This document shows, in pieces, positions 4,443-64,000 of a DNA stretch of 64,000 bases. The stretch is from NCBI GenBank assembly GCA_041489255.1, contig JBGPQV010000014.1, positions 1 to 64,000 of the forward strand. The letters run 5' to 3'. How positions within the stretch are numbered: the stretch's first letter is position 1; every line of letters begins with the position of its first letter. The notes beneath the pieces are model-generated. The model did not search any database. It was not told the origin of the DNA and saw only the letters and a program-made list of their open reading frames with translations. The stretch is from Thermoplasmata archaeon (GTDB taxonomy: Archaea; Thermoplasmatota; Thermoplasmata; RBG-16-68-12; JAFNFQ01). Made by a program: the position numbers and the translations under genes.

Positions 4443-5894
4443 TCAATCTAAATGCCGGCTCATCGTTTTCACCGTCGGACCGGTCGGGGAAAACATCTCC
4501 TGCTTCCATCGGAGAACTACCCCCCGGGAAATGAACCACGAGATCGTCAAGAGAACCCCGGACTCCGTCAGCAATGATGTCCAGGCAAGCAAAGGATTAC
4601 TCCGGATCAAGAAGGATACTATGGCCACAAGCACCAGAGGAGGGATGATTGCTCCTCCGAACTTTGCCAAAACTCTCACGTCGAACAGCATGGTATTCGT
4701 CCACAGCCCCGTCAACCGCGCCGTCACGCCCGCCACATAGACGGTAGTAGCCGCCGCTACAAGCAGCGACAAAGGAACCAAATCCAACTGTCCGTCAAGA
4801 ACCCCAATGACCACGACATAGGAACAGGATATGACGGCCGTCAGCAGGAAATAGAGTACGAGCTTCGCTCTGATAACCTGATCCGGGGTCACCGGCTGGA
4901 CGTTCATGAACTCATTTGTCTCGATGTTCGTCAGCCAAGAGTAGACCATGACACCGAGGAAACCGACCATTCCGCCGTAGAAGATTCCGTTGAACTCAAT
5001 CGGCACACCTATCCCTGAACGGAAGATCCACGCGAGCATGTAGATTGCGAGGAGTGGCCCCAAGAATCCGCCAACGACCGCACCTAGCGCCCCGCTCCGG
5101 CGGAGCTCCAGCCACTCCTTCGCCACGAGGGTCTTCAGAGGGCCGGAGAAAGAAAACCTGCGCTCCATGGGCAGCAGCGCACTCCCGTACATTCTGATCG
5201 GAGCCTCGAAACGCTCCTTGGTCAAGAGGACCGCAGCCGCTGACAGCAGGAAAGCGAGGATTGCGGAGATTGAGAGGAACCACGGATTCTTGTCTGCCCA
5301 GAAACCCAGCGGCGGGAGGATTTGACCGGCGGTCAGAATCTTCAGAGGCCAGACCAGAGCGACAAGCCCGAGGACGGCCAACAGTCCTGCGGCGGACACG
5401 GCCCTCGAACGCGTCGAAACGGTCGAAGCCAGGAAGGAGAGCGACATGCCAATCATGAAAGCGAGGAAGAGCGTCAGGCCGAGAAGGCCGACGCTGGTCA
5501 ATGAAGCGTTGGCGAATGGCGCACCTACCGCAATCCCGCCGACGATCGGCACGATGGCGTAGAGGATGTAGAACGTCGCGTCCTTGAGGTAGAAGATCGC
5601 CATGACCCTGCTGAACGAGACAGGCTGCAGGGAAGGCAGCGCCAGCAGGAAGTTCACCTGGCCCAGGCGCCTCGTCATCACCTGCTCCCCGATGCGGCCG
5701 AGCGCCCCGACGCCGAGGCCGTAAAGCACGCTCCCTGCATGGAGCATCAAGAGCACGGTCGGGACATCGATGCCCTTGAACCTCGAAAATGTGACTGCAA
5801 GGACGACAGACAGGAAGAAAATCATGACAGGGAAGAAACCGGACCCGATAGAGCCCGCGAACGACCTGTGGAGTCGTAGCTCCTCCTTGAACAT
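4443..5894 (-). CDS. ABC transporter permease (ABC-2-like, duplicated)
   Basis: ~12 TM segments, directly downstream of an ABC ATPase. Confidence 0.8.
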   Translation of the reverse strand: MFKEELRLHRSFAGSIGSGFFPVMIFFLSVVLAVTFSRFKGIDVPTVLLMLHAGSVLYGLGVGALGRIGEQVMTRRLGQVNFLLALPSLQPVSFSRVMAIFYLKDATFYILYAIVPIVGGIAVGAPFANASLTSVGLLGLTLFLAFMIGMSLSFLASTVSTRSRAVSAAGLLAVLGLVALVWPLKILTAGQILPPLGFWADKNPWFLSISAILAFLLSAAAVLLTKERFEAPIRMYGSALLPMERRFSFSGPLKTLVAKEWLELRRSGALGAVVGGFLGPLLAIYMLAWIFRSGIGVPIEFNGIFYGGMVGFLGVMVYSWLTNIETNEFMNVQPVTPDQVIRAKLVLYFLLTAVISCSYVVVIGVLDGQLDLVPLSLLVAAATTVYVAGVTARLTGLWTNTMLFDVRVLAKFGGAIIPPLVLVAIVSFLIRSNPLLAWTSLLTESGVLLTISWFISRGVVLRWKQEMFSPTGPTVKTMSRHLD

Positions 5895-7323: not shown

Positions 7324-8277
7324 CTAGCGGATGTAGGCCGAATCATCGGTCTCGGTCTCCTCCTTCTTTGGCGGTTCAAACGTCTTCTCGAAGGCCTCCC
7401 AGTGCCGCTCGTCTTGCCATTGGCGGTAGTGCTGGTAGATCGTCTTCGGGTCAGCCCATCCTCCCTGAGCCTGCAGGTCTTTAACGTCGCCCTTCCACAT
7501 TGTCGCTCCGGTTCTACGGAAGGCACGCGGCGTTATCGTGTCCGGCAAGCCCGCACGGCCGCACGCTCGCCTGATGACCTCGAGCGGGTAGCGGCGGTGA
7601 TGCGGTCGGCCTGGCATGACCTCAAAGAGATAGACTGAAGGCTTATGTCTTTCGATGTAGCGACCTAGAGTTCTGGCGGTCTCCTTGGTGATGAACGGCT
7701 TGACCCTCCGGTTCGTCTTTTGCTGGACCTTGCCATCGATGCAGGGATGGTCCACGTCGAGACGTACCTGAGAGAGACGGACGTTCACCAGATCGCTAGG
7801 CCTCAGCAAGCTGTCGTGTTGCAGCAGCACAAGCGCGAGTTCTTTCAGATTTCCCTGTCTCTCCAGCTCACGCTTGAGCGGAAGCCAGTCAGCCTCTTCG
7901 TCGATCAGGTAGCGGTCTTCCAGCAATTCCTTCGACGGCATCGGGAACCGGAGCGGTTCGTCCTCTTCATCCCGTATCTTCTTGGACCTCAAGTACCAGG
8001 TCAACGCGGGACAAACTACCAGTCTCGAATTGACTCGATACTTCCGGCAGATGATTTGCTGATAGTAGGCGTCGACGCTCTGCGGTGTGATCGGTTCTCC
8101 GTCGAGCCATGTCAAGAAGGCAACCACGTACTGCCAGTATCGATCCAGCGTGGCCTCGTTGACATGGCCCTTCCGTTTTACGAATCCCCGGAAGGCCTCT
8201 TCATCGGAGAGAGCGGGAATCGGCATTATCCGTGCCCCCCGAAGGCTCCTGCTGAGACGTTCAATGATGCTAGCCAC
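7324..8277 (-). CDS. tyrosine recombinase/integrase
   Basis: LLRPSDL (catalytic R), TPRAFRRTGAT, QGGWADPKTIYQHY (W...Y); N-terminal SAM-like domain ATLDRYWQYVVAFL. Confidence 0.93.
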   Translation of the reverse strand: MASIIERLSRSLRGARIMPIPALSDEEAFRGFVKRKGHVNEATLDRYWQYVVAFLTWLDGEPITPQSVDAYYQQIICRKYRVNSRLVVCPALTWYLRSKKIRDEEDEPLRFPMPSKELLEDRYLIDEEADWLPLKRELERQGNLKELALVLLQHDSLLRPSDLVNVRLSQVRLDVDHPCIDGKVQQKTNRRVKPFITKETARTLGRYIERHKPSVYLFEVMPGRPHHRRYPLEVIRRACGRAGLPDTITPRAFRRTGATMWKGDVKDLQAQGGWADPKTIYQHYRQWQDERHWEAFEKTFEPPKKEETETDDSAYIR

Positions 8278-18919: not shown

Positions 18920-18943
18920 GCCAGGTGACCGCCGTAGGCCCCC
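18920..18943. repeat. attachment site, right copy (intact 3' end of rnpB)
   Basis: Identical to 7263-7286. Confidence 0.92.
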
Positions 18944-19278
18944 TTCTGTTCTAACGGCATTTGACTTAGCGTCCTACCTGGCCTATCGGCCTTTTTGGAC
19001 TTGCTCCGATGGGGAGTCGCCGTCTCACCAGTCGGCTCCGATCGCTCGGCTCCTGCACTCCGCCGCCAGCGTCCTCGTCATTACGTGCCGCGATTCATCC
19101 TCGGCGGCGGCTGTGTCGTTTCTGCGCCCTTGCCATCCCTCTCGGGATACCGGCTTGCGCCGGTCCACCAGCGTCCCCGCGGCCTCCGCGAGAGGCGCGC
19201 GGTTCGCTCGCCGGTTTGGAGGGGGGACCTTCCTCAGCAACCACGTTGGTCACCGTCGGCCGTCCACGGTCTCCTGGC
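18920..19278 (-). ncRNA. rnpB: RNase P RNA (archaeal, type A-like)
   Basis: Minus strand has GAGGAAGGUCCCCCCUCC (CR I), GCGCAGAAACG (CR II), GGUGAGACGGC (CR III), GGAGCAAG and AACAGAAGGGGGCCUAC (CR V); P1 helix GCCAGGAGACCGU/GCGGUCACCUGGC closes the ends. Confidence 0.95.
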
Positions 19279-54317: not shown

Positions 54318-55184
54318 ATGGAAGAGCCAAAGATATTTCGTACCCTGCCGCCATCACTGCGCATGCAGCAATCTTACGGGGGTACGCCCATGGCACCTCC
54401 GCCAGCACCGGCACAGTTCCCGCCGCCGGCGCCGGCACAGGTGCCTCCGGTGGAACCACCCAGGAAGGCAGGATCGGGCAAGGCGCTCAGCGGCATCGCC
54501 ATGGCACTCGGCGCGGCAGCGATTGCGATTGCGCTGATTGGAATGGTCATGTTCCCAGGACCGGCGGGAGCGGCAGGGACTAAGGGAGACAAGGGAGACA
54601 CTGGGGACACCGGAGCTCCGGGAACGAACGGCGCAAACGGTGCCAACGGTGCTAACGGACTCGACTGCTGGGATTTGAATGGCAATGGGGTCGGCGACCT
54701 CGCAACGGAGGACCTGAACGGGGATCTGGTCGTGGATGTCAGAGATTGCACGGGACTGCCAGGTCCGGGTTCAATCATGACCTTCGTCACGGAGGGCAAT
54801 GAGCTCACGATAAACGCCTACCCCACATGCACGAACTACATGAGTGTCACGATCAACGTTCCGTCGGACGGGCAGGTCGTAGTGAGCTCGACCGTGTGGC
54901 TGCGCATCAGTCACACCACCGGGACCGACGATGTCGTCCTGGTCGTGATTGGAGACGCGGTGGACGACTGCCAGTACTTCGACGGGCAATGGCGGTGGCA
55001 GGAGACTGTGGACGGTTCGATAGGAACCGAAACAGCACTCTACCTGACCGCAGGTCCGCAGCGTGTCTTCCCGGTCACGGCAGGCAGCAACACCTTCTAT
55101 GTGAACGGAGTGATGTTCGAGGGTCGGGACGCCAACGACTACTTCTGGCGAGGAAATGCAGTGGCGGTCTTTTATCCGTCGTGA
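54318..55184 (+). CDS. membrane-anchored collagen-like protein
   Basis: Pro-rich N-terminus, TM, ~12 Gly-X-Y triplets, CWDLNGNG..EDLNGD..DC motif, beta-rich head. Confidence 0.85.
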   Translation: MEEPKIFRTLPPSLRMQQSYGGTPMAPPPAPAQFPPPAPAQVPPVEPPRKAGSGKALSGIAMALGAAAIAIALIGMVMFPGPAGAAGTKGDKGDTGDTGAPGTNGANGANGANGLDCWDLNGNGVGDLATEDLNGDLVVDVRDCTGLPGPGSIMTFVTEGNELTINAYPTCTNYMSVTINVPSDGQVVVSSTVWLRISHTTGTDDVVLVVIGDAVDDCQYFDGQWRWQETVDGSIGTETALYLTAGPQRVFPVTAGSNTFYVNGVMFEGRDANDYFWRGNAVAVFYPS

Positions 55185-55479: not shown

Positions 55480-58400
55480 GTGCTCGTGGCGGCGTCATTG
55501 ACATTGACAGCGATCCTCTCAATGCCGAGCCTCATACAAGGAGAGCATAAAATCAAAGGGGTCACATCTGCATTTCTGCAGACGTCAAAGGAGCAAGTCT
55601 TGGACCATGCGGAGTCTCAAGAGGGATACTTCACCGAGAACCGCGGTCAGGTAGCAGACGGAATCCGGTTCTACCTAAAGGGGAAACCCGCGGTGGCATT
55701 TAGGGATGATGGGGTCATGTTTGTGGCCCGAGAGGTATCGTCGAAGAAGCCGACATACGACGTTTCCATTGGAGGAATCGCTGAATCTGCGGTCGAGAGA
55801 CGCCACGCCTATCTGCTTCGTTTTGAAGGTGCGAATGCTGTAGAACCGCTTGGAATCGGCCGACTTCCGTTCAACAGTAACTTCTTCATTGGAAAGGACT
55901 CGAGCACTTGGCGGTCTGATGTTCCCAACTACAAGGAAATCATCTATCGGGATTTGTACGATGACATCGACCTGGTATATCGAGTCACTCAGGATGGGTT
56001 GAAGTACGACTATGTTGTGTCGCCCGGAGCGGATCCCAACGTAATCGAGATGTCGTATGAAGGAATCGATGCGCTCACTTGGGCCGGAGGCTACACGGTT
56101 ATTAATACATCAGTCGGTGAGATTCGCGACTCCCCTCCAACGTGCTATCAGGAGGACCACGTTGTCTCCTGCGCCCTCGAAGTCAGATCAGCGAGTTCGT
56201 TTGGCTTCAGTTTCGAGGTGTATGACCGCTCCCGACTGCTGATAATCGACCCCCTGGTATACTCAACGTTTCTGGGCGGCAGCGGTTCTGATGGTGCATG
56301 GCTTCCCGGTCCCGCCGTAGCGGTCGACGACGATGGCAGCGCCTATGTGGCGGGAATCACGGATTCGCAGGATTTCCCCACGACACCAGGAGCTTACGAC
56401 GTGAATATCGGCACCTCCATCGACGGTTTCGTTGTCAAGATGGACCCGATGGGGAGTACCCTCGTCTTCTCGACATTCATCGGTGGCCAGGGCAGCGGTG
56501 GAATCGACGCCATCGCATTGGATACCGCGAAGAACGTGTATGTGACGGGCACGACCACGCTAGCCAACTTCTCCACAACGCCCGGAGCCTACGATACCTC
56601 TTACAACGGGAACGCCGATGTTTTCGTCACGAAACTCAGCAGCATGGGGAACTCTCTAATCTATTCCACATTCGTCGGCGGCAGCAGCTACGAGAGGGGC
56701 AACTCCATAGCCGTCGACTCCTCTGGATGCTCATACGTAACTGGCGATACGGTGTCCGATGACTTTCCAACGACTCCTGGCTCGTACGACCGCGTCTGGG
56801 ACGGCCAGATTGGAATCTTCGCCTACTGGGACTCATTCGTCTTCAAACTCAATCCTGGCGGAAACGCGCTCCAATACAGCACGTTCCTTGGCGGCACGAA
56901 CAATGACTACGGGAATGGGATAACCCTCGATGCCGGAAACGATGCGTTCGTAACTGGGGCGACATCCTCCGCAGACTTCCCCACCACGGTCGGCGCGTTT
57001 AGCAGGACATTCGGCGGCGGGGAGTTCGATACATATGTGACTAAGCTCAATCCGTCGGGTAGCAACCTCATCTACTCCACATTCATCGGTGGCGAAAGCC
57101 GTGACGTCGGAAACTCAATCGACGTCGACTCTTCCGACAACGCATGGCTGACAGGCTATACTTGGTCCACTCTTTTCCCAGTCACACCCGGTGCGTTTGA
57201 CACCCAAGGGAATCTCAGTGATGCCTTCGTCGTCAAGGTAGACTCTTCCGGGAACAGCTTGCGCTATTCCACTTATCTCGGTGGGAGCGGCATCGGTCTG
57301 TACGAAGATGATGGCCTCTCAATCGTGGTAGACGGTTCTGACGGGGCGCTCGTGTCCGGAACGACAAGCTCCTTCGACTTCCCTGTAACGCCAGACGCAT
57401 TTCAAGCCACGTATCAGGGCGGCGGCAGCGACGCATTCGTGACCAGATTCAACGAGAGCGGCTCTTTGACATTCAGTACATTCGTGGGAGGCAGCGGGCT
57501 GAACTGGGATAGCGGAAGCTCTATTGCTGCGGACAGGTTCGGTTCCTTCTACCTGACAGGCTACACCGACTCCGCTGATTTTCCGACGACCCTGGGGGCG
57601 TATGACAGGACGCTCAGCACGGCAGATGTTTTTGTGTTCAGGTTCGCTTTCGCGCTGACGAACCCGCCTCCCGTGGCCTCCGGGCTCGGTGTTCAGGGAT
57701 ACAGTTCCCCGCCAGAGATTCTTCACATTACGGACTCTCAGCCCCTGCTGAACTGGACATACGATGATGAGGACGATGAGCCTCAGGACTGGTACGAGGT
57801 GAAAGTCGGAACATCGAGAGGGGCATCGAACTTGTGGAGCCTTGTCTTGCAGCCCGGAACGGAGACCTCGGTTAGGTACGACGGCCTTCCGTTGTCCCGA
57901 GGCGAATATTACTGGTTCTCGGTCAGGGTAAACGACCAGCTGAACAACACTACCAGCTGGAGCTACTGGGCGAATGCGATGTTCCACATGAACAGCATAC
58001 CCACTCCCCCGCAAACGCCTGTTTCTCCCTCGGAGTTCTCTGTCGTCCCCGCCACAAAGAGCCAAAACGTTTCATGGGGCAACAGCACCGATCCAGAGGG
58101 AGACCTGGTCACATACGAATGGGAGGTCGCGAGGGATGTGGGTTTCACGGACTTGGCATCCTCAGGTACGACCAAGGAGAACAAGTCATCTGACTTCGCA
58201 ACGGGTCCGGGCACTGCCTACTATTGGCGGGTGAGGTCGAGGGACGACTACGAGCCGACCAGCTGGTCCGCGTTTGGGAACGCACCTGCGGGCATGTGGG
58301 CCTTCCTCACAGAAAATGATGACCTCCCGACAATAGAGGTCTATGCGCCCCCGAGGCTCAAGCAGGGCGACACATACACCCTCACCTGGTCGATGGACGA

Positions 58401-58815
58401 CACAGAAACACCAGATTCGCAGCTGATAGTCTATCTGAACTATAGCTATGGCGGAGTCACCTACGGGATTGCAGGCCCTCTTCTCGGCAATTCGACGTAC
58501 TCATGGACTGTCCCCTCGATTGAAAGAACCGATGTGAGGATCGAAGCGATAGTCATAGACTCAATGGAACAAAAGGCACGGAGTCTGACTACGGAGTTTG
58601 AGATATTCAAGGAATCTCCGGAGTTACCGCCGGTCGACGCATGGGCGGCTGCGATGCCTGTCATCGCAGTTCTGGCGGTGGCGGTTATCGGAGTATTCGC
58701 GATGGTTGTGATACTCACAGTCTTGTTGCTACGAGAAAGACGAATGAGGAAGACGATGGAGATTCAAGGAACCTCACCCCAAGGCGAGTCTCCCTCACGG
58801 AAAGATGAGCGGTAG
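55480..58815 (+). CDS. surface protein with SBBP beta-propeller repeats, Fn3-like domains and C-terminal TM
   Basis: FTENRGQV N-domain; repeated YSTFLGG..D.G..IAVD..G.AYVTG.T.S.DFPTT; C-terminal hydrophobic anchor. Confidence 0.92.
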   Translation: MLVAASLTLTAILSMPSLIQGEHKIKGVTSAFLQTSKEQVLDHAESQEGYFTENRGQVADGIRFYLKGKPAVAFRDDGVMFVAREVSSKKPTYDVSIGGIAESAVERRHAYLLRFEGANAVEPLGIGRLPFNSNFFIGKDSSTWRSDVPNYKEIIYRDLYDDIDLVYRVTQDGLKYDYVVSPGADPNVIEMSYEGIDALTWAGGYTVINTSVGEIRDSPPTCYQEDHVVSCALEVRSASSFGFSFEVYDRSRLLIIDPLVYSTFLGGSGSDGAWLPGPAVAVDDDGSAYVAGITDSQDFPTTPGAYDVNIGTSIDGFVVKMDPMGSTLVFSTFIGGQGSGGIDAIALDTAKNVYVTGTTTLANFSTTPGAYDTSYNGNADVFVTKLSSMGNSLIYSTFVGGSSYERGNSIAVDSSGCSYVTGDTVSDDFPTTPGSYDRVWDGQIGIFAYWDSFVFKLNPGGNALQYSTFLGGTNNDYGNGITLDAGNDAFVTGATSSADFPTTVGAFSRTFGGGEFDTYVTKLNPSGSNLIYSTFIGGESRDVGNSIDVDSSDNAWLTGYTWSTLFPVTPGAFDTQGNLSDAFVVKVDSSGNSLRYSTYLGGSGIGLYEDDGLSIVVDGSDGALVSGTTSSFDFPVTPDAFQATYQGGGSDAFVTRFNESGSLTFSTFVGGSGLNWDSGSSIAADRFGSFYLTGYTDSADFPTTLGAYDRTLSTADVFVFRFAFALTNPPPVASGLGVQGYSSPPEILHITDSQPLLNWTYDDEDDEPQDWYEVKVGTSRGASNLWSLVLQPGTETSVRYDGLPLSRGEYYWFSVRVNDQLNNTTSWSYWANAMFHMNSIPTPPQTPVSPSEFSVVPATKSQNVSWGNSTDPEGDLVTYEWEVARDVGFTDLASSGTTKENKSSDFATGPGTAYYWRVRSRDDYEPTSWSAFGNAPAGMWAFLTENDDLPTIEVYAPPRLKQGDTYTLTWSMDDTETPDSQLIVYLNYSYGGVTYGIAGPLLGNSTYSWTVPSIERTDVRIEAIVIDSMEQKARSLTTEFEIFKESPELPPVDAWAAAMPVIAVLAVAVIGVFAMVVILTVLLLRERRMRKTMEIQGTSPQGESPSRKDER

Positions 58816-59000: not shown

Positions 59001-59062
59001 ACGTCTCAGCACTCATAGGGTCAATCACGATGATCAGCTGACCCTCTTCTCATCATCGACGC
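59001..59062 (-). ncRNA. box C/D sRNA, candidate tRNA-Met Cm34 guide (sR-tMet-like), copy 1
   Basis: GCGUC-G-AUGAUGA(C)-12 nt-CUGA(D')-GUGAUUGA(C')-CCCUAUGAGUG-CUGA(D)-GACGU with terminal stem; BRE/TATA CGAAAGCCGTTTAT upstream at ~59099-59086. Confidence 0.75.
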
Positions 59063-59238
59063 GAGGACCTCATCATTGCGGCGGGATAAACGGCTTTCGG
59101 CTTGCTTCCCCGCGGTGTGGCCAGCCGTCGGGTGCTCAGGAATCCGCCTTCGTCCCCCAACGACCGAGCTGGCGCATTGACCTGGCGTCCTTGACGGTTG
59201 CGAGGCTGCCGGCGATGCCGAATGCTATGATCCTACCG

Positions 59239-60165
59239 TCACCCGTTCGACAACAGCTTCTTCCGCATTCCTTCCAGCTGCTCATTGACCCTCCTTGTCT
59301 TGCTGGCGATGCCCGCCAGGGGTTCTCCGAGGATCAAACGCATCTCGTCGGCGCCTCCGATGTCAGGCATAGACCCCTTCGGAAGCTCGATGTTGTCGCG
59401 ATACCGCCCGTAGGTCTCCAGCATGAATCGAACCTTGTCGAGAATCTGCGGCACGAAATCGGAAATCACGAAGTCGAGCTTCTCGCCCATGTAGACGATG
59501 TCGACGACATCCCTGAGCTTGCGGATCTTCCTGGTCAGCGCCGCCCTGCATTTCTCGACGAATATCTCGCGCGCATCATAGCAGGGCATCTCTATCTTCG
59601 CCGAGTATTCCTTCCAGGGTTTCTCGTATAGGAAGGCGAGTTCCCCGGATTCCAGCCGCTCGACGTAGCTGTGCACATTCCTTTCTTCGACGGCGAAGAG
59701 CATCTTGTCGACCAGATTGACCTCGACCTTGATCCTGGACGGGACTCCGAGGACCTCCGAATCGTACCCGAGCCAGAGGAGGACCATCCTGCCCCCGCTG
59801 CTGATGTGCACCTCGCTCTTGTCCGACTTGTCGCCCTCGAAGCCAAAGCCCAGGTCCCCTGAGATGGACTTGACCCGCCTCAGGACCTCGTCAATTTCCT
59901 TCGAGCACCGCCGCTTAGTCTCCGACAGGCTTCTCCCTTTCCAGATCGCCGAGTCTCGCCAGGTGAAGTCCACATCCTCGGAGAAGCGGTAGTAGCCCAG
60001 GTAGGCCTTGATGAGGCACGTCCCGCCCTTGAAGGCGAGGTTCCTCCTGAGGTACGTGTCCAGGGACATGGCGTGGAGAAGCCGGTGCAGGTGGAAGTCC
60101 ATCTCAATGATGTCAGTCCTCCGCGGCTTCCCCAGGGCGTTCAGGCGCTCGAAGAAATCCTTCAT
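59239..60165 (-). CDS. type IV TA toxin, AbiEii/AbiGii nucleotidyltransferase
   Basis: LAFKGGTCLIKAY..YRFSEDVDF, EKCRAAL.R...RDVVDI. Confidence 0.93.
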   Translation of the reverse strand: MKDFFERLNALGKPRRTDIIEMDFHLHRLLHAMSLDTYLRRNLAFKGGTCLIKAYLGYYRFSEDVDFTWRDSAIWKGRSLSETKRRCSKEIDEVLRRVKSISGDLGFGFEGDKSDKSEVHISSGGRMVLLWLGYDSEVLGVPSRIKVEVNLVDKMLFAVEERNVHSYVERLESGELAFLYEKPWKEYSAKIEMPCYDAREIFVEKCRAALTRKIRKLRDVVDIVYMGEKLDFVISDFVPQILDKVRFMLETYGRYRDNIELPKGSMPDIGGADEMRLILGEPLAGIASKTRRVNEQLEGMRKKLLSNG

Positions 60166-60797
60166 GGCAGTTCTCCCATGGCCTCCCGGAATCGCATCGA
60201 GTAGCGCGCAAGGTACCTTCGGAGCTTGTCCATGTTCAACCTCTCTATGTGCTCCATGATGACGTCCCTCGGCGAACCTTTCCCCTGGCGGTGCGTCCTG
60301 TAGGCTAAGTCAAGGACGGTCTTCTCGGGATCTGAGTACGTCAGGCAGCCCTTTCGAATGGAACCGAAGCCGAAGCGGTCGGCGCTCCACTTGTGAAACT
60401 GGAACCTCGAACCGAGGATGCCTATGACCTTCGTGGTCCTGAAGGAATCGGTGACGACCGAGTCGACCACGAAGTACTCGTGCGTCAGGCCGTTGAGCTT
60501 GAGGGCGGTTTCCATGCCGAAGTACCAGCGCTTCACGCCCTTCAATTCCAGGGCTTCCGCCACCAGTTCGAAGGTCGAGCGTTCAGTGTATCCGCGTTCG
60601 CGCTCGTCCGCGCTGCGCACATAGAAGATGCCCTTGAGGATGCGGGCGATGTAGCCGTGTTCGAGCAGGTACCGGAGGCTGCGGTCCCCCTTCTTCCCCG
60701 CCTGGGCGGCGAGTTCCCTTATCTCACCCGAGGTGACAATCCTGCGCTCCTCGACGAGCAATTTGCTCCATATGGCAGGAATATTTATTTCAGTCAT
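60162..60797 (-). CDS. type IV TA antitoxin, AbiEi-like (wHTH)
   Basis: GYIARILKGIFYV, YFGMETAL..NGL, YSDPEKTVLD; ATGA overlap with the toxin. Confidence 0.88.
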   Translation of the reverse strand: MTEINIPAIWSKLLVEERRIVTSGEIRELAAQAGKKGDRSLRYLLEHGYIARILKGIFYVRSADERERGYTERSTFELVAEALELKGVKRWYFGMETALKLNGLTHEYFVVDSVVTDSFRTTKVIGILGSRFQFHKWSADRFGFGSIRKGCLTYSDPEKTVLDLAYRTHRQGKGSPRDVIMEHIERLNMDKLRRYLARYSMRFREAMGELP

Positions 60798-60825
60798 AAT
60801 GTCCCTATTATTGGGATGTTATGAC
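60793..60825. promoter_or_regulatory. inverted-repeat operator of the TA operon
   Basis: GTCATAATGTCCC-TATTATT-GGGATGTTATGAC (13-bp arms, 2 mismatches) overlapping the antitoxin start codon. Confidence 0.7.
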
Positions 60826-60920
60826 ATGAACGTATTTACGTCTTGCGTTCCGCCAATCAGCTGACGAGGACATGGAAGCCCCAATCTCAAACTCCGTGCT
60901 CACAATGACTCGACGGCAAG

Positions 60921-60981
60921 GCATCTCAGCACTCATGGGGTCAATCACGATGATCAGCTGACCCTTTCTCATCGTCGACGC
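60921..60981 (-). ncRNA. box C/D sRNA paralog, copy 2 (diverged)
   Basis: ~90% identical to 59001-59062; C box ACGAUGA; terminal stem retained (GCGUC/GAUGC); D guide CCCCAUGAGUG. Confidence 0.6.
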
Positions 60982-61189
60982 GAAGATATCATCCTCCCGC
61001 GGAGAAAAAAGCATCTCAGCAAGCTCTGCCTTTGTCGTCGCCGTCTCTCCCCTTTCTTCTTTCATATTCTAACGGCAGATGGGCCCGTGTTGAGCTTTCT
61101 ATCGCGCGATTCAACCGCAAGAGACGCTTGAATTGACGTCATCCCCCCGTCACGATTCTGACAGGCGCGGAATCCCCTCTAAGGAGTGG

Positions 61190-62035
61190 GTGACCGGGAC
61201 GGACATTTCCCCAACAGGGACGACATCCGTCCCGACTGAGACCGGAGCCCACTCTTCTGGGACTCAATCCGTCCCCGGTCTGATCGAGTGGCTTGGAGCG
61301 GGGTCGCCCTCGACCACGTGGGGACGGTGTTCGTCCCGCCCAGGACGGACGCTGTCTCAGCAGTCGCAATGGCTCACCCGACGGGGACATGATTCGTCCC
61401 AACCGGGACATTGTCTGTCCCCGCCCAAATGGGGTGGCGAGGACCGGAAAGGACCCCTCCCCGACCGGAACGGACCTCCACCCGACCGGGACTTATTCCG
61501 TTCCGATCGGGGAAATGAAAGTCCCGGAAGGGACGCCGTCCGTCCCGATCTTCTTCGGCCCGCCAACGTTCGAGGCGGGTTGACGAACGATCGCGAGAAC
61601 ATCCGCAACCGCCGAGCCGAGGTCCGCTCGGACTGGTGGAAGTCCAAGTGCGGTTGTCGGCGCTTCTGCAGCCGTCGTCCCGACATCCACCTAGATTCGC
61701 GCGACCTGCCCGAAGATGCAGGCGGGTTCCGCATCGGATCAGGAGAAGTCCATCCGAGCAGAGAGCGGGTCCGTCCGGACAGGGACCGCTTCAGTCCGAC
61801 CATTCAGAGTCGTTCCGCGGGCAATGTCCGGCTCGGTCAAGGACGATTCTGGAACGTTGGAGGAGAGGTTCGTCTGAATCGAGGAGGATTCAGGAACCGT
61901 TGGCATGTGGTCTGCAGGCATCCTCACGACCTGGACCCGGATTCGGACTGTCTCCGTGAGGATCGAGGCGGATTCCTTCCGGATGCAGGAAGGGTCGCTT
62001 CGAACGGAGGAGCAATCCGTCCGGATCGCGGCACT
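61190..62035. repeat. degenerate 21-bp tandem array (consensus ~CCGACCGGGACGNNNTCCGTC, drifting 3')
   Basis: ~40 units, e.g. at 61211, 61378, 61399, 61461, 61482, 61524; GGGAC-N7-GTCCC dyads; phase slips. Confidence 0.8.
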
Positions 62036-62249
62036 GGACATTTCGCCGAGAGACTCCCCCAGATGATTCGCCATCTCGGCGGTCGCTGGAGTCCCTGCAA
62101 GTGAACCGTACCGACGTCGTGAGTTTGGCATCGACAACCATCAGGCCACGGCCAATCGCCCTGCCGGATTGGGATTGTTGCCGCAGAGTTGCGCGTCGTC
62201 CTCCATACACAGAAAATAGAAATACAACGAAGTCGGATGAGATGCTCGC

Positions 62250-64000
62250 ATGCGAGGGGTTCGTGATCCGGGATTACGAAGGGGCATCTTCATTTCGACA
62301 TTCGTGACGCTCTCCCTGCTGAGTGCTGTGTTCTCCGAACCTTTCCCCTCGCCCGCCATGCCCGGGAAGAATCCGTCTGTTCCTGCCGCGAACCAAGCCG
62401 GACACGATGTCTTCGAAACCTTTCAGTCCATGAGCGGATACTTCATCGAGAACAGAGGACAGGTGGCGGACGGGGTTCGATACTACTCGATGGGCAACCC
62501 GTCGGTCGGAATCAGAGATGACGGCGTCATGTTCGTGATCAGGGGGCCCATCGAGAGAGAAAGCGAGGAAGGGTGGCGTGGGCCGAACGGGCCATCTGCC
62601 GTCATCGAAGAGGCGACCGCAGTGAGATCGTTCGCGTACATGCTACGCTTTGAAGGGGCCAACGAGGTCACGCCGATTGGCGTCGACCGCCTCTCGTTCA
62701 ACAGCAACTTCTTCATCGGGAGTAACTCCGACAAATGGAGGACTGATGTTCCGAACTATAGGGAGATTGTCTATGAGAACTTGTACACCGGCATCGACCT
62801 CGCTTATCTCATGACGAGAGAGGGCCCTAAGTATGAATTCAGGCTGCAACCGTACGCGGACCCGGAGATGATCCGTCAGACCTATGATGATGTCGAGACG
62901 GTGGAGGCGGGCTCAGACGGGTTGACGGTCCGCACGGGGATTGGAGACGTGCACGACTCGCGGCCGTATTCGTTTCAGGCATCAGGTACGAGCGTCGCAT
63001 GCGAATTCTCGGAAGTCGGGTCGCTCTCAATCGGATTCGTCTGCCCCGACTATGACGAGTCGAAGCCTTTGACAATCGATCCCTTGGTCTACTCGACGTT
63101 CATCGGCGGGAGCTATTCCGAAACAGGCTTCGATATCGCAACGGACTCCAACGGATATGCCTACGTGTCGGGGGAAACCGATTCGCCTGATTTTCCCGCA
63201 AAGCCTGGATCATACGACACAATCCTCAATTCTGGCGAGGACGCGTTTGTGGTGAAGCTGAGCTCAACCGGAAGCACCTTGACCTACGCCACATTCCTCG
63301 GCGGGACTGCCGGCGAAGAAGGTTATTCTATCTCAGTCGACTCCACTGGGAATGCATTCGTGTCGGGTAGCACCTACTCCTCTGACTTCCCTACGACTCC
63401 CGGTGCCGTTGACACGGTGTATGGCGGTGACTTGGATGTGTACGTCACGAAATTGAATCCGGCCGGCAACGCACTGATTTACTCTACATATCTGGGCGGT
63501 AGCAGCGGCAACAATGGACTTGGCAGCGCTGTCGATTCGAGCGGTAACGCCTATATCGTCGGCTCCACGAATTCCGTTGATTTCCCTGTGACGCCGGGCG
63601 CCTACGACACCTCCCCCAACGGACTCAGAGATGCGTTTCTGGTCAAGCTGAACCCCACCGGCAGCGCCCGAGTATATTCCACCCTCATCGGGGGACTCTA
63701 CGAAGATGGGGGATGGGACGTCTACGTGGACGCCAATCGTAACGCCTATGTCGTCGGCGAGACGGTTTCGGACAACTTCCCGACAACTCCTGGCGCCTAC
63801 GATCGCATATACGCCGGGTATCGTGATACGTTCGTTCTGAAATTGAACGACATGGGTACCGCGCTAATCTACTCGACTCTGCTCGGCGGAAGGCTGGACG
63901 ACGTAGGTGTAGGCATCTCTGTTGACAGCATCGGCAATGCCTATGTGACCGGCATCACCTTGTCACCGGATTTCCCTGCGACGCCAGACGCATTCGACAA
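62250..64000 (+). CDS. SBBP beta-propeller surface protein, paralog of 55480..58815 (partial, runs off the window)
   Basis: MRGVRDPGLRRGIFISTFVTLSLLSAVFS signal; YFIENRGQVADG; IDPLVYSTFIGG repeats; absent from the ORF track because there is no stop in the window. Confidence 0.9.
   Translation, partial: MRGVRDPGLRRGIFISTFVTLSLLSAVFSEPFPSPAMPGKNPSVPAANQAGHDVFETFQSMSGYFIENRGQVADGVRYYSMGNPSVGIRDDGVMFVIRGPIERESEEGWRGPNGPSAVIEEATAVRSFAYMLRFEGANEVTPIGVDRLSFNSNFFIGSNSDKWRTDVPNYREIVYENLYTGIDLAYLMTREGPKYEFRLQPYADPEMIRQTYDDVETVEAGSDGLTVRTGIGDVHDSRPYSFQASGTSVACEFSEVGSLSIGFVCPDYDESKPLTIDPLVYSTFIGGSYSETGFDIATDSNGYAYVSGETDSPDFPAKPGSYDTILNSGEDAFVVKLSSTGSTLTYATFLGGTAGEEGYSISVDSTGNAFVSGSTYSSDFPTTPGAVDTVYGGDLDVYVTKLNPAGNALIYSTYLGGSSGNNGLGSAVDSSGNAYIVGSTNSVDFPVTPGAYDTSPNGLRDAFLVKLNPTGSARVYSTLIGGLYEDGGWDVYVDANRNAYVVGETVSDNFPTTPGAYDRIYAGYRDTFVLKLNDMGTALIYSTLLGGRLDDVGVGISVDSIGNAYVTGITLSPDFPATPDAFD

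Follow-up and report, generated by a model that had tools for sequence, protein, structure and literature searches.

Two direct repeats enclose a toxin-antitoxin operon

The window analyzed here, a 64,000-nucleotide (nt) stretch of DNA from a Thermoplasmata archaeon, corresponds to contig C14 of a 2.74-Mb metagenome-assembled genome (MAG) that is 96% complete and is labelled G000. Within the window, an intact operon encoding a type IV toxin-antitoxin (TA) pair, abiEi/abiEii, is enclosed by two direct repeats of approximately 62 nt (59001-59063 and 60921-60982), each of which resembles a box C/D small RNA (sRNA) gene read from the minus strand (Table 1). An earlier note on this DNA had described the repeats as ~61-nt copies of a guide RNA aimed at tRNA-Met, and had proposed that the locus is either a mini-island for which the sRNA gene served as the site of insertion or a functional coupling of a tRNA-directed guide with a tRNA-directed toxin. 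Self-comparison of the window confirmed the repeats around the operon, with one block (59004-59045 and 60924-60965) that is 98% identical across 42 nt and a second, weaker block (59047-59106 and 60966-61025) that is 70% identical. Throughout, G numbers denote genomes, of which G001 belongs to the same genus as G000 and the others are order-level relatives, and L numbers denote fetched loci, metagenome contigs included.

The two open reading frames (ORFs) of the operon are adjacent and overlap by 4 nt, which is the arrangement of AbiE type IV TA systems. AbiEii matches its Pfam family with 93.4 bits (cut-off 22.5), and the Pfam match of AbiEi to AbiEi_4 reaches 18.9 bits, which is below the cut-off. 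Both genes are intact in four of four alleles, with ratios of nonsynonymous to synonymous polymorphism (pN/pS) of 0.30-0.32 for abiEii and 0.17-0.25 for abiEi. The TA pair is probably kept intact by an addictive or defensive effect of its own.

Table 1. Features of the sRNA and TA locus, with positions counted from the first letter of the window.
Feature	Position	Strand	Description
sRNA copy 1	59001..59063	-	box C/D sRNA, consensus copy
Copy 1 5' stem	59063-59058	-	pairs with the 3' stem to form the terminal stem
Copy 1 C box	59056-59050	-	AUGAUGA
Copy 1 D' guide	59049-59038	-	12 nt, GAAGAGGGUCAG
Copy 1 D' box	59037-59034	-	CUGA
Copy 1 C' box	59028-59022	-	GUGAUUG; a linker lies between the D' and C' boxes
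Copy 1 D guide	59021-59010	-	12 nt, ACCCUAUGAGUG
Copy 1 D box	59009-59006	-	CUGA
Copy 1 3' stem	59005-59001	-	pairs with the 5' stem
Copy 1 promoter (putative; c1-type)	59064..59106	-	TATA-like TTTATC at 59090-59085; BRE-like CGAAAG at 59099-59094
abiEii	59239..60165	-	DUF1814 nucleotidyltransferase toxin, 308 amino acids; Pfam PF08843 E=2.7e-26, PADLOC E=9.8e-51
abiEi	60162..60797	-	antitoxin and transcriptional regulator, 211 amino acids; PADLOC E=7.2e-41
TA leader and promoter region	60798..60920	-	imperfect palindrome at 60798-60830, then the element-specific 3' flank of copy 2
sRNA copy 2	60921..60982	-	C box ACGAUGA; 11-nt D' guide (1-nt deletion); 3' stem GAUGC
Copy 2 promoter (putative; mutated)	60983..61025	-	TTTATC changed to TTTTTC; BRE part GCCGAAAGCC replaced by GCTGAGATGC
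Segment X	61026..61177		in window-type filled alleles; absent from empty alleles and from G001

The repeat is conserved as a dual-guide box C/D sRNA

Copy 1 displays the anatomy of an archaeal box C/D sRNA, with C and D boxes beside a terminal stem and with internal D' and C' boxes. The spacers between the C and D' boxes and between the C' and D boxes are 12 and 12 nt in copy 1, and 11 and 12 nt in copy 2. A DNA search of 41 genomes (G000 and 40 order-level relatives) found a match to the sRNA in 32, as a rule once per genome. In an alignment of 32 sequences, which came from seven families and six metagenome contigs, all boxes and both guides were invariant or at least 90% conserved, and the linker and flanks were variable; the four boxes that the earlier note had placed on the minus strand are therefore confirmed both in copy 1 and across the alignment. 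Its statement that pairing of the terminal stem is kept despite substitutions is also borne out. Changes on both sides occur in all six pairs of the stem, and the number of cells changed on both sides is 36, as compared with 11.7 in shuffled alignments, with none of 500 shuffles equalling it. Furthermore, 81.8% of cells are paired as compared with 64.5% after shuffling, the covariation score of 0.559 (0.239 when shuffled) is reached in none of the 500 shuffles, and controls in which the stem was slid along the alignment are all much lower. The genome encodes fibrillarin (241.7 bits) and Nop5 (183 bits).

A TATA-like element with a BRE-like element (the form of an archaeal transcription factor B recognition element, BRE) lies approximately 21 nt upstream of the 5' stem of copy 1 on the sense strand. 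The motif CGAAAG-N3-GTTTATC is present upstream of the sRNA in 13 of the 17 alignment rows that cover that region, is mutated in copy 2 of the window and of L057, and is different in L052 and L062. From its position and recurrence we infer that the motif is an archaeal BRE/TATA promoter. We conclude from these comparisons of sequence that the repeat is a genuine box C/D sRNA gene, which carries two guides and is conserved in this Thermoplasmatota order. Copy 1 of the window equals the consensus and is identical to the single-copy sRNA of L055, and is presumably the functional copy.

The two guides match targets in pre-tRNA-Met and in helix 69 of LSU rRNA

The host gene for elongator tRNA-Met, as called by ARAGORN, contains a 31-nt intron (G000:C23:7655-7761), and its precursor (pre-tRNA-Met) reads ...GGACTCATA|GGGT... 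at the exon-intron junction. The longer junction sequence, ...GGACUCAUA|GGGUACGC..., forms a duplex of 11 base pairs (bp) with the D guide (ACUCAUAGGGU with ACCCUAUGAGU), which places C34 at the fifth guide position counted from box D (+5). The earlier note had aimed the D guide at C34 of tRNA-Met through the same +5 rule and had asked whether the complementarity crosses the exon-intron junction; its arithmetic was correct, and the complementarity spans the junction of the host gene. The exact 11-mer that it gave, CACTCATAGGG, occurs only in sRNA copies and in a partial copy on contig C6, and tRNA-Met differs from it at the base adjoining box D. Three to four of the bases paired with the D guide belong to the intron, and spliced tRNA-Met, or an intron-less CAU tRNA on contig C1, can form only 7 bp with the guide, which indicates that methylation should precede splicing, an order that is also reported for sR-tMet of haloarchaea. 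The D guide should accordingly be read as directed at C34 of the intron-containing elongator pre-tRNA-Met. In all 20 of the elongator tRNA-Met genes that were fetched, from seven families, an intron follows directly after A37; its first bases are GGG, and the rest of it differs among genes in both length and sequence. Conservation of these three intron bases is what a constraint by the guide would be expected to produce. Furthermore, the D guide agrees with the Rfam consensus of sR-tMet at every base of CCCUAUGAGUGC and is nearly identical to sR41. In haloarchaea, Cm34 is made by a box C/D ribonucleoprotein with sR-tMet, according to the table of a review (PMC4033218). ARAGORN also called many other intron-containing tRNA genes in G000, some with introns at non-canonical positions or of implausible length (hundreds to ~1900 nt), and several of these odd calls are probably false.

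The D' guide, for which the earlier note had assigned no target, contains a core (AAGAGGGUCA) that is complementary over 10 bp to UGACCCUCUU in the large subunit (LSU) rRNA of the same genome, with a C at the +5 position. This stretch of LSU rRNA was located in 18 of 41 genomes, and all 20 matched places in them have the 10-mer unchanged. The +5 base aligns to position 1919 of the annotated Escherichia coli 23S gene (2903 nt), in helix 69, which we take to be C1920 in the usual numbering, with an offset of one base. C1920 is a known site of 2'-O-methylation by TlyA in some bacteria. The D' guide is thus predicted to direct methylation of the C in LSU helix 69 that is equivalent to E. coli C1920. 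We also looked for compensatory changes in the LSU target of D' guide variants (G001, G008, G009 and G024) and found none, as the target is invariant.

The TA cassette is present or absent at the sRNA gene among close relatives

The G001 genome carries the sRNA-TA-sRNA arrangement at 94% identity and at the syntenic place (window 46570-54185 matches G001:C23 19000-11385 at 95.7%), and therefore provides no empty site. When metagenome contigs were scanned for a 21-nt pattern taken from the sRNA, 12 loci on 10 contigs matched. Two of these contigs are filled, with two matches 1919-1920 nt apart, a TA pair between them and 92-95% identity to the window. Seven contain a single sRNA with no TA pair in its flanks, and L053, which starts within the sRNA, allows no judgement. 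Window 61994-61178 has a 98.9% match in L055, and 58 nt farther on L055 contains one sRNA that is 100% identical to copy 1, with no TA pair. Similarly, L058 matches window 63083-61178 at 96.9% and contains, again 58 nt on, one sRNA that is 98.5% identical to copy 1, also with no TA pair. On its far side, L055 continues into sequence that is also present in G001 (87.8%) and in the filled contig L057 (96%). Relatives with a single sRNA and no TA pair, a comparison that the earlier note had suggested, are therefore found among the order-level genomes and as L055 and L058. In addition, assembled contigs of the Logan collection from four other sediment runs contain pieces of the filled allele, one of which bridges copy 1 and the left flank and another of which spans the TA pair and copy 2.

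Relative to the empty alleles, G001 has gained exactly one repeat and the TA pair, or ~1920 nt. Copy 2 of G001 keeps the promoter type of the empty alleles, whereas copy 1 has a different, c1-type promoter on the TA side. These promoter types indicate that an sRNA promoter came in with the inserted DNA, along with some or all of an sRNA gene, and that the exchange occurred within the 62-nt sRNA. As in genomic islands at RNA genes, the target gene is repeated directly at the two ends of the insert, and relatives have the site empty. Based on these alleles, we conclude that the TA cassette is an insertion polymorphism at the sRNA gene, and the mini-island is the better of the two alternatives that the earlier note had offered.

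Copy 2 of the sRNA accumulates lesions

Copy 2 differs from copy 1 at one position of the D guide and by the loss of 1 nt from the D' guide, as the earlier note had reported, and it further differs in its C box and by a C-to-U change in the 3' stem. The change in the D guide (U to C, to give ACCCCAUGAGUG) introduces a C-A mismatch to pre-tRNA-Met, and the best Rfam match of copy 2 reaches 18.5 bits. The C-to-U change in the 3' stem preserves pairing and is common to all copy 2s. The 3' flank GAUGCCUUGCCGUCGAG is likewise common to every copy 2, and occurs at no copy 1 or single copy. Other lesions are specific to lineages. The window and L057 have the C box ACGAUGA, the deletion in the D' guide, the change in the D guide and a mutated promoter; L060 has the C box AUGUUGA and the D' box CUAA; and G001 has the C box GUGAUGC and a C-to-A change in the D guide. 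That boxes and guides have been hit by independent, lineage-specific lesions indicates relaxed constraint on copy 2, which looks redundant and decaying.

In L060, the position of the copy 2 promoter still holds an intact c1-type promoter. The corresponding region of the window contains the plus-strand string GCTGAGATGC at 61011-61020, in which the earlier note had seen a possible third, decayed sRNA unit. The string is present, and alignments place it at the BRE part (GCCGAAAGCC) of the copy 2 promoter, which indicates that it is what is left of a BRE/TATA promoter; we therefore rejected the third unit. From 61040 onward, the sequence is a repeat held in common with contig C34 rather than sRNA.

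A model for insertion by recombination between sRNA copies

Expression of the sRNA, methylation of its targets, the recombination mechanism and the activity of the TA pair are steps that we infer from sequence, and they can be combined in the following model. Guided by the D guide, fibrillarin, Nop5 and L7Ae would 2'-O-methylate C34 of elongator tRNA-Met, and would do so only while the intron is present because of the intron bases that take part in the duplex. In one genus, a 1.9-kb unit that comprised the abiEi-abiEii operon, a single copy of the sRNA and an sRNA promoter would have inserted at the sRNA gene, so that the TA pair would come to lie between two sRNA genes of the same orientation. 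Most probably, the incoming sRNA copy would have recombined with the chromosomal sRNA gene. Because the unit is without an integrase, the candidate routes that we propose are entry of a small circle by homologous recombination and the action of a recombinase in trans. One sRNA copy would now be redundant and gather lesions, and the TA pair would be retained. We assign a probability of roughly 0.75 to this reading as a whole, that is, a dual-guide sRNA gene into which a TA unit was inserted in one genus by sRNA-sRNA recombination and whose second copy is decaying.

Several observations weigh against this reading. The window-type alleles (window, L057 and L060) have c1-type promoters on both copies together with the extra segment X, and a single simple event does not account for every allele that we compared. 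The empty alleles could also be secondary deletions that arose by recombination between the two repeats. Between the repeats, only the abiEi and abiEii ORFs have family matches, and neither is an integrase; the four tyrosine recombinases of the genome are all elsewhere, with the nearest PF00589 match at window 7408-7851. Within the short Logan contigs of the four sediment runs we found no join across the cassette and no circular form or excision joint, and viral contigs gave no matches to the sRNA pattern and no relative of AbiEii. Lesions are also present in the copy that we take as functional, since the D' guide of G001 copy 1 has a G-to-A change that is uncompensated in the LSU target and L057 copy 1 has a lesion in its D' guide as well. 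With respect to the identity of the sRNA, a permissive Rfam scan of copy 1 matched C/D families only, in agreement with the class that the earlier note had assigned, but every score was below gathering, with the highest for sR3 (33.4 bits) and sR20 (33.2 bits), followed by sR41 (27.0 bits; gathering 54) and sR-tMet (25.6 bits, E=0.092; gathering 50). Judged by its D guide, copy 1 would work like sR-tMet (RF02163), yet it is not a member by the Rfam cut-off. Finally, none of the sequencing runs listed as holding the stretch is an RNA run.

Alternative explanations of the locus

The arrangement could instead be a functional module in which the tRNA-Met guide and the AbiEii toxin cooperate, either because the guide marks or protects the tRNA substrate or because the sRNA regulates the operon. 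The sRNA-TA-sRNA order is kept at 92-95% identity in four independent assemblies, copy 2 lies ~120 nt upstream of abiEi on the same strand, and DUF1814 toxins of the MenT group modify the acceptor stems of tRNAs, as two reports describe (PMC7450476, PMC10435456). However, known MenT targets are the 3' ends of tRNAs and not the anticodon, and the copy that adjoins abiEi is the decaying one. The association is also limited to one genus. No sRNA lies beside any of 12 other AbiE loci within the fetched flanks, including one with 70% protein identity, an Rfam scan of six other AbiE loci gave no matches at E<=0.1, and G003, G009 and G031 have a TA homolog and the sRNA on different contigs. Strains that are 97-99% identical on the right flank keep the sRNA without the TA pair. 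The coupling of guide and toxin that the earlier note had entertained is therefore very improbable in our judgement. Less improbable, though still unlikely, is that the duplication came first, such that unequal crossing-over duplicated the sRNA with its promoter and the TA pair later landed between the copies, with the sRNA sequence playing no part in insertion. This order of events would suit the window-type repeat, which spans the sRNA and ~40 nt of the same promoter type, as well as the repeat of L060, which is 98% identical over 98 nt, and it has a parallel in Pyrobaculum, where C/D sRNA genes are duplicated and a pseudogene lies 2.5 kb from its parent (PMC6009581). However, an allele with two adjacent copies and no TA pair is seen in none of the 10 metagenome contigs or the 40 relatives. 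Moreover, the two copies in G001 differ in promoter type and the switch is at the sRNA borders, as recombination within the sRNA would give, and in G002 and G001:C25 other cargo, too, is enclosed by directly repeated 3' parts of the sRNA.

A further alternative is that the repeats are only DNA recombination sites, similar to phage attachment (att) sites, from which no RNA is made. The earlier note had remarked that an internal AGGGTCA/TGACCCT dyad would favor such a site should the genome encode no complementary tRNA and no small RNA be expressed. The 7-bp dyad does exist, and partial copies of the sRNA are found at cassette borders elsewhere. In the RNA, the dyad (AGGGUCA/UGACCCU) arises from the two guides together with the C' box, and each guide is conserved for its own target, which makes the dyad a by-product of two conserved guides. 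In the f4 genomes G004, G020 and G039, the dyad is down to 4 bp (GUGACGAG in the C' region) and both guides are retained. Conservation across the order follows the layout of a box C/D sRNA, with 12-nt spacers, a promoter and a covarying stem, both guides match conserved targets, and a complementary host tRNA-Met is encoded. We consider it scarcely credible that the repeats act as DNA sites alone, and we favor insertion by recombination between sRNA copies.

Repeat-bounded cassettes at other loci

Copies of the sRNA sequence are associated with other cargo as well. G002, a genome of another family, has one complete sRNA as well as a 38-nt copy of the sRNA 3' part (L023, which is G002:C27, 2996-3021 and 7078-7148). 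The two are directly repeated at a distance of 4.1 kb and enclose one gene for a 1248-amino-acid BNR/CarboxypepD_reg surface protein. A partial copy in G000 (C6:126499-126560; L001 ~1490-1550) consists of the D guide, the D box and the 3' stem, has no recognizable C box, and is 100% conserved over 28 nt as compared with a background of 83% in G001. ARAGORN called no tRNA at this copy, Rfam matches only its D-guide end, and it could be a non-canonical guide or the remnant of a recombination site. In G001:C25 (L084), the partial copy occurs twice, ~770 nt apart, around a 200-amino-acid ORF without a Pfam match. Taken together, the copies in G002, C6 and G001:C25 support a role for the sRNA sequence itself. 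Similarly, L044, a contig from another Thermoplasmatota MAG, contains two AbiEi/AbiEii pairs in opposite orientation that are bounded by three direct repeats (296-366, 2093-2133 and 4472-4542), which correspond to the 3' end of a gene with an RMMBL domain (beta-CASP-like). This locus looks like a tandem array of cassettes at one site, and AbiE genes of other lineages, too, seem to move as small cassettes with repeats at their borders.

A tentative extension of the model, which we hold to be rather doubtful, is that the unit is a mobile cassette without an integrase that uses the guide RNA gene as a recombination handle. Such a cassette would loop out between its two copies, re-enter the single-copy sRNA gene of related genomes, restore a working guide gene as it does so, and be held in place by AbiE addiction. 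As the 3' part of the sRNA also borders other small cargo, the box C/D guide gene may be a general site of cassette exchange in this archaeal order.

Surroundings of the locus

Paralogous surface proteins with DUF7948 and SBBP beta-propeller domains flank the locus (55480-58815 and 62250-63998). Neither the syntenic region of G001 nor the empty-site contigs contain the left one, which indicates a variable neighborhood. With large, variable genes for surface proteins at its borders, the locus has the look of a hot spot of recombination. A tblastx comparison of the sRNA neighbors with the loci of 25 relatives gave a match in one only, a collagen-repeat protein of G005 that is 41% identical to window 54318-55184 and has a different arrangement.

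A sequence of ~1 kb to the right of copy 2 (61040-62066) recurs at 84-88% identity, at G000:C34:12542-13462 (84-85%) and in G001:C57 (L018 6499-7491; 88%). The part of segment X from 61040 is contiguous with the right flank in these paralogous copies on G000:C34 and G001:C57. The recurring sequence is rich in internal inverted repeats (e.g., 61194-61234 with 61487-61527), and the long ORF at this place in the window (61133-62104) matches no family of Pfam or NCBIfam; the C34 copy shows no ORF of comparable length.

Window 60791-60882, which takes in the abiEi leader and promoter with the imperfect palindrome and start codon, has an 84% identical counterpart at G000:C34:9762-9853. The counterpart is located upstream of a gene with a Fic domain whose neighbors are DUF488 and ASCH genes. 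This leader may be a regulatory module that small toxin-like cassettes hold in common. Elsewhere in the window, an archaeal-type RNase P RNA at 18923-19275 (122.8 bits), which marks the DNA as archaeal, contains large insertions relative to the Rfam model, for example 47 nt in place of 6 positions.

Comparison with known systems

Like the haloarchaeal sR-tMet (RF02163) and the Pyrococcus sR41 (RF01126), the sRNA described here has the D guide CCCUAUGAGUGC, a predicted target at C34 and a need for intron bases. Unlike them, it scores below gathering, has canonical C, D', C' and D boxes within ~62 nt and carries a second conserved guide, for LSU helix 69; its host also belongs to a phylum-level lineage, Thermoplasmatota, different from that of haloarchaeal sR-tMet. 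The sR-tMet type of guide would thus be extended from haloarchaea and Thermococcales to uncultured Thermoplasmatota, with a helix 69 guide added. The TA pair resembles other AbiE and MenAT type IV systems in its overlapping two-gene operon, the winged-helix N-terminus of AbiEi and the nucleotidyltransferase domain of AbiEii, and differs from them in that its host is archaeal. The locus also offers a caution, since a tRNA-directed guide beside a possibly tRNA-directed toxin resembled a module, and the comparative data explain the proximity as an insertion.

Duplicated sRNA genes with diverging flanks, a pseudogene kilobases away from its parent and modular rearrangements were described in Pyrobaculum by Lui et al. 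(2018; PMC6009581). In that text, those duplicates are not described as flanking an inserted cassette and the word 'integration' is absent, and a limited literature search turned up no C/D sRNA gene described as a site of integration. The closest parallels are islands and prophages that reside in the genes for tRNA, transfer-messenger RNA (tmRNA) or ffs RNA, as exemplified by a phage att site in ffs (PMC12540744). As in those elements, direct repeats of an RNA gene flank the insert, an intact copy of the gene is kept and the element is present or absent among relatives. In contrast to them, the present insert measures just 1.9 kb and has no integrase gene, and its target, a box C/D guide gene, has been duplicated in full, together with its promoter in one allele type. 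The locus, for which filled as well as empty alleles are at hand, is a clean natural example of a box C/D guide gene that serves as the landing site of a TA cassette.

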